Made by a program: the position numbers and the translations under genes
Sequence record: LC727697.1
Strand: one strand, 5' to 3'
DNA: 64,000 nucleotides
Source of the DNA: Pseudomonas phage sp. 30-2
Shown: positions 15,330 through 16,790 of the stretch, piece after piece
Numbering within the stretch: position 1 is the stretch's first letter
Layout of the letters: every line of letters starts with the position of its first letter
Notes under the pieces: generated by a model
Told to the model about the DNA's origin: nothing
The model's database searches: none
Seen by the model: the letters and a program-made list of their open reading frames with translations, nothing else

Positions 15330-16790
15330 TCTAGTTAATTTTCAATTTCGTTCAGTCGTAGTATGCCATAAAACGTTTATAATTATATAGAGATATTTTA
15401 TAGAATTACCGTAATATACAACGTTAGTAAGTATGTGAACTACAGTTCACATATGTATTTTGTTTATATTCGTTTTCGTAAACTACAACTCATATAAACA
15501 AAATACAAGTTACTAAAGTAACAAAATTAAAGTAATTAAACAAATTTGATATAATTTAAGATTATTTTGTATGTCCAATACACTGCTAGAAGCAGTGTAT
15601 TGATGTAGAATGGCCTAAAATGGCGTGTACTGATTATGACATGAGTGTAAACGAAAGTCATAAACATCTACCCCTTTTCGGGGTAGATGCGTACGACATA
15701 TAATTGACAATTATATTTTTTAAAAAAAACTAAACAATGACGGCATTATTTAGGCGTGGGTATACTATCGACTAGCAACGTTTATTGCTAATGAGCGGGG
15801 AGCTAAACTCAAACTTTAACAAATTTCTTTATTAAAGCGCCAATCCTACAATACTCATGTATGCGCCAGTAGTCTAGCCCATTTACACCGTAGCATAAAC
15901 ACGCAACCTACGAAAGCCTCACCCGACGCTTATATTGCCTAAATTAAACATTATAATTAAGCAAACAGCCACCTAAGCTAACATCCACTTTCAACTCCCG
16001 GAACCGCAGTACAGTTTGTAATACCATATCCGTAACCTGCGGCTGTTGTTGGTACAAGTACATATGTCACAAGGATAGTGTCATAAAGTACGTTGATCTT
16101 TTTCTACCAGAGCAACATCCTTTCGTTTACACTTCTGTACATAAATGTAGGAAGAACAGTTGTGTAAACCACTTCGAACACAATAACCCTTACAACCTTC
16201 TTACAGTGTTAATCGATGAATAACATTTGGGACGTCACTCCCGTTAAACACCAATTACCAGGGACTCGTTTTTGCTTAAAAAGCTTTTTCCCGTTCCCGT
16301 TGTGTATACGTAAACTATATTCCTTTTGTTTACGAAAGTGTTCTGCAGCACCCAAAATCATAATTTAAATAACCTTTTTTCCTGCGTTATCTCCGTCTCT
16401 AACGGTACTACAGTAAAGGCACGATGGGGATAGTTTCTACTACCAATATCCAATGATGGAACAAAGCTGCTATGTTAGTTGCCAATGTCTTCATAAGAAC
16501 TAGTCTTAAACAAGAATGCCCGTTACCGTTCACCCTTTAAACATACAACTGGGTCTTCCTAAGCAAAAACTTTAAAACACTTAGGAGAACGTCTGTTTTG
16601 TTACATACGTCCTTTAGTTTTATTATGTTGCGGATTATAGCATACGATATTAATACTGTCAACCATTGTACTAAAATCGTTAAAAATAATGCTATAAGTT
16701 ATCTACACACATATTTATCTCGACAGTATTATATGGGTATAAAATTAACTAAATAATGTAAAATTTAACAGGTATATAAAAGGTTAACAA
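15330..16790. other. 1.45-kb stretch with no ORF of 60 aa or more on either strand. C-rich on the plus strand, with strong hairpins. Candidate structured ncRNA(s) or origin/regulatory region
   Basis: Hairpins at 15433-15452 (ATGTGAA/TTCACAT), 15578-15600 (ATACACTGC/GCAGTGTAT), 15665-15689 (CATCTACCCC/GGGGTAGATG). Long-range inverted 12-mers at 16268-16280 and 16560-16572. Only short ORFs (50 aa or less) are possible, e.g. minus-strand 16211-16361. Confidence 0.5.

Follow-up and report, generated by a model that had tools for sequence, protein, structure and literature searches.

What does a phage genome hold in a stretch that contains no open reading frame (ORF) of appreciable length? The question is raised by positions 15280-16793 of Pseudomonas phage sp. 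30-2 (LC727697.1), numbered within the 64-kb window analyzed here, i.e., the whole stretch of 64,000 nucleotides. This block contains no ORF of at least 60 aa on either strand and is the only such gap of at least 400 bp in the window. A previous interpretation made from the letters alone (hereafter, the sequence-only reading) had described it as ORF-poor and compositionally distinct, and both descriptions hold. The GC content at ~15600-16650 is 0.37-0.42, as compared to ~0.23-0.31 on both sides, and the plus strand of the block is C-rich, with a GC skew of -0.13 to -0.27. Among the explanations offered at the time, a large structured non-coding RNA (ncRNA) is the one favored by our analysis, given a promoter and a terminator-like hairpin on the minus strand, paralogy with an annotated transcript, compensatory base changes, and selection acting on ORF-free sequence. 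We estimate a probability of about 0.7 that the block is an unannotated minus-strand ncRNA gene of ~1 kb, the third paralog of a lineage-specific family that includes ncRNA004 of phage PA5oct.

Results

The block and its flanks match 10 Pseudomonas aeruginosa jumbo-phage records of the genus Wroclawvirus at 99.3-99.9% identity, and the matched genomes include PA5oct, MIJ3, Callisto, 30-3, PAC2, and Deifobo. The window is the reverse complement of PA5oct (MK797984) at ~28.5-92.5 kb, so that its minus strand corresponds to the Watson strand of PA5oct. In the 287-kb genome, the block is the third longest gap that lacks an ORF of at least 60 aa. The longest one, 3.1 kb at MK797984 3256-6395 with a GC content of 0.27, is annotated as a dense run of 40-55-aa genes in the terminal repeat.

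A search of the phage collection with the block returned three places per genome. Beyond the block itself, designated copy A, PA5oct holds two more partial copies, B and C, both on the Watson strand. Copy B (MK797984 12810-13720) lies in the long terminal repeat, as a 911-bp gap with neither annotation nor ORF, and the similarity is located at 12.9-13.1 kb. It has a perfect σ70 promoter at 12831-12859, followed by a module shared by all three copies (12898-13029) and by a second shared element, box 2 (13117-13139). The 5′ end of the module in copy B is partly duplicated just upstream, CTACTTTGTTCCATTTAC standing ahead of CAGCTCTGTTCCATTAC. Copy C (246.15-246.8 kb) lies inside ncRNA004, with a σ70-type promoter at 246069-246097 and the module at 246148-246275. 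The ncRNA004 feature (MK797984 246116-246734) is annotated as a “putative lncRNA”, an active region defined by RNA sequencing (RNA-seq) that has no plausible ORF, and as a discrete transcript that ends ahead of the downstream genes (Lood et al. 2020, PMC7318152). From the copy C promoter, transcription is expected to start no more than ~12 nt away from 246116, where the annotation based on RNA-seq places the start of ncRNA004.

The three copies have in common, in the same order, a σ70-type promoter, a 131-nt module, box 2, and possibly a box 3. In every copy, the module sits 40-165 nt downstream of a same-strand promoter. Box 2 (AAAGGAUGnnGCUCUGGUAGAAA; minus strand, 16101-16123 in copy A) can form a hairpin and, with as many as 4 mismatches allowed, is found in the genome only within the three copies, once in each. 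The possible box 3, (G/A)(U/C)ACCAAC at 16044-16055 on the minus strand, is weak and was seen by alignment only; it follows box 2 in the same order as ACACCAAC does in copies B and C. An apical element of 27 nt (15465-15491) in the hairpin at 15454-15507, on the 3′ side of copy A, is identical in copy C, where it lies just past the annotated 3′ end of ncRNA004. The stems around this element differ in sequence between copies A and C, yet both pair. Paralogs B and C sit in contexts unrelated to that of copy A. Each copy precedes terminator-like hairpins and then same-strand genes, which are p150 for copy A, gp50 onward for copy B, and gp355 onward for copy C. No paralogy was found among p150, gp50, and gp355. 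Because the downstream genes of the three copies are unrelated, only the non-coding unit has been multiplied.

The structure of the 131-nt module (16343-16474, minus strand) was derived with RNAalifold from the three paralogs and their strain variants, 12 distinct sequences in all. It consists of six helices: a closing stem, P1; hairpins P2, P3, and P5; the long-range helix P4; and P6. The module of copy A is 83% identical to that of copy B and to that of copy C, the overall range among copies being 79-83%, and two runs, of 33 and 26 nt, are invariant. In each of the 12 sequences, every one of the 28 pairs is a standard pair, as compared to 36-56% of cells when the partner columns are slid by 1-3 positions. 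Four pairs, two in P1 and two in P5, have changed on both sides with pairing kept, and no pair is broken. These compensatory changes are GCAGC/GCUGC versus GUGGC/GCCAC, and CCGU/ACGG versus CUGU/ACAG versus CCGA/UCGG. None of the nine strain-level single-nucleotide polymorphisms (SNPs) in the three modules disrupts a helix: each either lies in a loop or joining region or converts an A-U pair to G-U. Covariance model R1 retrieves exactly three copies in the genome; the copy in the window scores 153.8 bits, the others score 158.6 and 151.6 bits, and the next match scores 13.4 bits.

Copy A is preceded by a perfect σ70 consensus promoter (TTGACA-17 nt-TGnTATAAT; 16634-16662, minus strand), in which 12 of 12 hexamer positions match and the extended -10 TG is present. 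The putative RNA gene is on the minus strand; the sequence-only reading had not specified a strand. Transcription of copy A is predicted to begin near 16627. Variation between strains was measured on an alignment of eight Wroclawvirus genomes over 7.5 kb, in which the promoter hexamers are invariant and the sole SNP (16648) lies in the spacer. Perfect TTGACA-N16-18-TATAAT promoters number only 11 in the 287-kb PA5oct genome, versus 0.4 expected per strand. Ten of the 11 are on the Watson strand, and two of the 11 precede the non-coding copies A and B. In PA5oct, which requires the host RNA polymerase, nearly all early transcription has the Watson strand as its source.

The strongest hairpin of the block lies ~970 nt downstream of this promoter. 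It is a GC-rich hairpin at 15657-15697 on the minus strand (-28.2 kcal/mol, z = -7.5), followed by UUUCGUUU, and is a candidate intrinsic terminator or 3′ end. The promoter and this terminator-like hairpin predict a primary transcript of ~970 nt (15655-16627, minus strand). The predicted transcript is G-rich (G 22.5%, C 15.6%; skew +0.18); copies B and C, with a skew of +0.07, are barely so. The predicted folding energy of the minus strand is -281.9 kcal/mol (z = -5.7), as compared to -210.2 kcal/mol (z = -3.3) for the plus strand.

Strain variation shows how tightly the block is held. In the flanking genes, 1.6% of first, 0.47% of second, and 6.2% of third codon positions are variable. In the GC-rich core (15723-16609), 5 of 887 sites are variable (0.56%), which is ~11-fold less than at third codon positions (Fisher p = 9e-15). 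The tightest part of the block is an invariant 492-bp stretch (15723-16214) with zero variable sites in the eight genomes. The constraint is uniform, lacks codon periodicity, and extends over stretches that contain no ORF of at least 40 aa. The spacer downstream of copy C (PA5oct MK797984 ~247100-247570), by comparison, is hypervariable in six genomes, with ~100 of 470 columns (~20%) variable and many indels. This spacer served as the neutral yardstick, and the core is ~35-fold less variable than it in the same genomes. The ORF-free core is under purifying selection as strong as that on second codon positions.

The body of copy A also carries repeated short motifs. CCCGTT, noted before as a repeated motif, is indeed overrepresented: four of its 15 copies in the window fall within 16240-16524, every one on the plus strand. 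Read on the minus strand, these are four AACGGG motifs that flank the module, with ~0.2-0.3 expected (p ≤ 0.0005). UGUUUA occurs seven times in the predicted RNA (15655-16627, minus strand), with 1.1 expected (p = 0.0005); neither copies B and C nor the plus strand show such an enrichment. Three of the seven UGUUUA sites adjoin AACGGG or GGG motifs around the module. The enrichments of both AACGGG and UGUUUA are specific to copy A. A sponge of the Rsm/Csr type was considered and rejected on the grounds that GGA motifs are not enriched (14 observed, 14.9 expected).

Two structural claims of the sequence-only reading survive in part. The left segment of the block, 15280-15600, is AT-rich (GC 0.23) and dense in hairpins, and the three strong hairpins reported for the left end are indeed strong, but they number four, with z = -2.8 to -7.5 when scored as minus-strand RNA. 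Besides the candidate terminator, there is a perfect 12-bp hairpin at 15576-15602 (-17.2 kcal/mol as minus-strand RNA), a long A/U-rich hairpin at 15454-15507 on the minus strand (-18.5 kcal/mol), and a short hairpin at 15431-15454 (-9.8 kcal/mol as minus-strand RNA), which is followed by a T-run and is terminator-like on the plus strand. In the perfect hairpin, PAC2 and 30-3 have TCT in the 3-nt loop at 15588-15590, where the other six strains have the reverse complement, AGA; the stem is the same throughout, and this swap is the signature of loop inversion within a palindrome. The long-range inverted repeat is likewise present. Its 3′ arm (16268-16283, minus strand) pairs with 16555-16570 at 14 of 16 positions, the arms are paired in the predicted minimum-free-energy fold, and their pairing would enclose the module. 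The repeat does not exceed chance, however, as 15% of composition-matched random sequences reach 14/16, and it was discarded as proof of structure.

Known RNA families do not account for the block. Rfam 15, searched with the whole window at gathering thresholds, matched no family, and for the block at E ≤ 10 it returned nothing meaningful, the best match being nqrA-II at 22.9 bits versus the 55 needed. This search covers riboswitches, GOLLD, ROOL, and the group I and II introns that had been suggested before, and none reaches its gathering threshold. ARAGORN found no tRNA or tmRNA gene in the window. Comparison of the block with 43 related IMG/VR loci by blastn and nhmmer gave no match. Scans for exact module motifs returned 0 matches for one motif and 4 chance matches for the other in IMG/VR viral contigs, 1 chance match in JGI metagenome contigs (on a contig of 51% GC), and 0 in GTDB genome contigs. 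Among isolated phages, the adjacent nuclease has its next best match, beyond the 99% group, in Salicola phage SCTP-2 at 48% identity, and there is no gap at that locus. As far as the searched collections show, the family is confined to Wroclawvirus.

The block is a divergent gene junction beside recombination nucleases (SbcC-like and PD-(D/E)XK). Of the two adjacent nucleases named in the sequence-only reading, the right neighbor is borne out as a PD-(D/E)XK endonuclease of 165 aa (16794-17291; Pfam PDDEXK_15, E = 2e-28; PHROG “RusA-like resolvase”). The 249-aa protein encoded after it is only weakly ParB-like (PHROG 1033, E = 4e-4 over 33 residues; no Pfam match). The left neighbor, at 14827-15279 on the minus strand, encodes a 150-aa protein (p150) of unassigned function and is convergent with a T4-type baseplate gene at 13749-14603 on the plus strand. 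Between these convergent genes is a 15-bp hairpin (14810-14846) that overlaps the 3′ end of the 150-aa ORF and resembles a bidirectional terminator; the surrounding segment has z = -6.3 on the minus strand.

A different RNA occupies the same slot in related uncultivated jumbo phages. These IMG/VR relatives encode a nuclease 55-60% identical to that in the window. In them, the genes for SbcC and the nuclease are followed by a non-coding stretch of ~500 nt, after which come a small ORF and the opposite-strand baseplate gene. The non-coding element, of ~480 nt, is more conserved than the flanking genes. Two motif scans and nhmmer located this RNA in 160 loci, with 103 distinct full-length copies (in our locus numbering, L007:6522-7005 on the plus strand, L003:6549-7036, L006:5666-6170, L044:6522-7005, and ~155 more IMG/VR loci among L051-L220). 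In a 153-nt domain of this RNA, 23 of 30 pairs show compensatory changes, and 98.7% of cells pair. It lies directly after the nuclease gene on the same strand in 139 of 139 loci and before the baseplate gene in 133 of 133. No Rfam family matches it, and isolated phage genomes lack it. New classes of large structured RNA are rare, and the ~480-nt element is a candidate for one.

Homology between this RNA and the Wroclawvirus block was looked for and rejected. Searches of PA5oct with the relatives’ RNA gave E = 67 by nhmmer and nothing better than E = 0.68 with covariance models R2 and R3, which represent its central 153-nt domain and its 3′ domain, with no match in the block, and model R1 found no match in 36 of the relatives’ loci. 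Visual comparison suggested short resemblances (AUUGGUAGU, AAAGGAUGA), but their order is reversed, and they were treated as chance. With no homology detectable in either direction, the PA5oct block is a positional counterpart of the relatives’ RNA rather than a demonstrable homolog.

Discussion

Our results allow us to propose how copy A might work. The host RNA polymerase would start at the σ70 promoter (16662-16634), on the Watson strand of PA5oct (~75.8-76.8 kb, MK797984), and transcribe ~970 nt through the GC-richer core to the terminator-like hairpin at 15697-15657. The shared 5′ module could be the common folding or protein-binding core, and the copy-specific body, with its AACGGG and UGUUUA repeats, may, early in infection, bind or sequester some factor of the phage or the host. 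The mechanism we prefer, tentatively and at somewhat less than even odds, is that the RNA acts in trans as a protein-binding scaffold. A trans-acting RNA is favored by the constraint over the whole ~900-nt body, by the discrete transcript of ncRNA004, and by repeats that resemble binding sites. The three-paralog architecture points to a dedicated RNA-based function early in infection.

Several observations weigh against an ncRNA gene at this locus. The bulk of the folding excess stems from the 3′-side hairpins; the GC-rich core alone has z = -2.6, and local 160-nt windows within it are unremarkable. Covariation in the module is real but thin, coming from effectively three independent lineages and two helices. 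The invariant stretch at 15723-16214 has no paralog or homolog, and the constraint there equally fits a function at the DNA level. The authors of the PA5oct study, who had RNA-seq data, list four ncRNAs, and copy A is absent from them; ncRNA004 itself is rare, at 0.02-0.08% of phage reads (PMC7318152).

Other explanations of the block differ in what they leave unexplained. Some annotations treat it as a cluster of very small protein genes of at most 52 aa. The RNA-seq-guided annotation of PA5oct has four tiny coding sequences in the block (gp142-145), which also hints, indirectly, at transcription of copy A; Deifobo, Cassandra, and PAC2 have six, and clusters of tiny genes are annotated in the terminal repeat of this phage as well. 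However, the six are partly different ORFs on different strands, and three other teams, those of MIJ3, Callisto, and 30-3, annotate no gene in the block. Ten small ORFs of the block have no match among PHROG families. The longest, of 50 aa (16209-16361, minus strand; gp144 of PA5oct), is the one that the sequence-only reading had proposed as ending at 16211. Its AUG start codon lies inside the module and is base-paired there, and the counterpart ORFs in copies B and C have just 7 and 14 codons, respectively. The small ORFs are not kept among the paralogs. The second candidate, near 15600, corresponds to a 43-aa ORF ending at 15536, which starts inside the terminator stem and holds another perfect hairpin. 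The uniform, non-codon-periodic constraint, present also where there is no ORF of at least 40 aa, is a further argument against tiny genes, which we consider very improbable. The absence of ORFs and the composition unlike that of the neighbors would also suit a decayed pseudogene, a dead mobile intron, or a neutral spacer. ORF-free sequence held as tightly as second codon positions rules these out: its variability is well below that of synonymous-like sites and of a truly variable spacer, by the factors given above. In addition, no intron or other Rfam family matches at E ≤ 10, and the consensus promoter is intact. We regard the probability of decay, raised earlier as an intron or pseudogene, as negligible.

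Two further alternatives were considered. The module may be a cis-acting leader that signals to the polymerase or to RNA processing, as an antitermination element like HK022 put or lambda nut, an attenuator, or a riboswitch, and would then control read-through of the downstream hairpins into p150, gp50 onward, and gp355 onward. Its promoter-proximal position in all three copies, and the terminator-like hairpins and same-strand genes after every copy, fit this idea. The nut and put sites are themselves multi-copy, promoter-proximal, conserved RNA elements. A leader, however, would not account for the ~850 nt, ORF-free and very strongly constrained, that separate the module from the next gene. 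Moreover, ncRNA004 is a discrete transcript that ends before the downstream genes, those genes are mutually unrelated, and copy A has one small gene before the convergent gene. We judge a cis-acting leader to be unlikely. The block might instead be a transcription-primed replication origin, in which the G-rich transcript would form a persistent R-loop and RNase H processing would prime synthesis in the AT-rich left part, on the model of ColE1 RNA II or T4 oriF/oriG. Each of the three copies would then be an origin; T4-like phages use several. The strong host-type promoter, the G-rich transcript strand, the AT-rich and hairpin-rich downstream end, and the divergent junction beside the SbcC-like and PD-(D/E)XK genes are compatible with this model, and the genome encodes RNase H. 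Against it, a search of the block for clustered direct repeats, as in an origin of the iteron or DnaA-box type, found only short, weak repeats of 2-3 copies, even though the AT-rich segment is present. GC skew follows gene orientation and is therefore uninformative as a test for an origin. Copies B and C are barely G-skewed, and compensatory changes keep RNA helices in the module, although RNA II is structured too. The sequence-only reading had listed an origin together with a packaging site; these results favor neither, and an origin strikes us as quite unlikely.

The suggestion that the RNA is functionally linked to the adjacent nucleases finds no support in the paralogs, which sit in unrelated contexts. 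It retains some probability, in that a different structured RNA comes directly after the homologous nuclease gene in 139 of 139 relatives. It is conceivable, but we rate the odds as low, that the slot holds a large structured RNA across a broad jumbo-phage clade and that the PA5oct RNA is a replacement or a diverged ortholog that works with the nuclease. It would then be a cofactor, guide, or regulator of a recombination or anti-defense nuclease, triplicated in Wroclawvirus around the shared 5′ module.

If the block is an ncRNA gene, as we favor, a gap, or a set of 4-6 dubious tiny “genes”, becomes a defined, testable RNA gene, and the published ncRNA004, far from being an orphan, has two paralogs that share its structured core and, like it, have consensus early promoters. 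Rfam has no entry for this family, whose module, conserved boxes, and promoters offer a handle for deletion, pull-down, and structure probing. Jumbo phages like PA5oct are candidates for phage therapy, and their genomes are mostly unexplained.

Comparison with Known Systems

Copy A resembles GOLLD, ROOL, and similar RNAs in being a conserved, ORF-free candidate of more than 500 nt that stands out by GC content in an AT-rich phage genome. It differs from them in that it matches nothing in Rfam 15, its covariation is limited to the 131-nt module, and its family is known from a single phage genus. The module shares with HK022 put and lambda nut the character of conserved, structured, multi-copy elements that come soon after early host-polymerase promoters. 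The put and nut elements, however, are ~70 nt or shorter and have genes directly after them, whereas 500-850 nt of non-coding sequence, under constraint, come after the 131-nt module. With ColE1 RNA II and T4 oriF/oriG, copy A has in common a strong promoter, a long, structured, G-rich predicted non-coding transcript, and an AT-rich end; copies B and C are not G-rich. The relatives’ RNA shares with the block the slot between the PD-(D/E)XK nuclease and T4-type baseplate genes and transcription toward the 3′ end of the baseplate gene. In those phages, the RNA comes after the nuclease gene and shares its strand, whereas in Wroclawvirus the nuclease gene is inverted, so that RNA and nuclease gene are divergently transcribed, and the 150-aa gene intervenes on the baseplate side.

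The closest known counterpart is ncRNA004, whose function is unassigned and whose paralogy is not reported in Lood et al. 2020 (PMC7318152). Copy A is ~340 nt longer, with an extra leader of ~100 nt, a unique body, and the AACGGG and UGUUUA repeats, and it is more conserved between strains (99.3-99.9% identity, as compared to 95.8-99% for the ncRNA004 locus). Both lie on the same strand behind a σ70-type promoter, and they share the module, at 79-83% identity and with the same helices, as well as box 2 and the 27-nt apical element.

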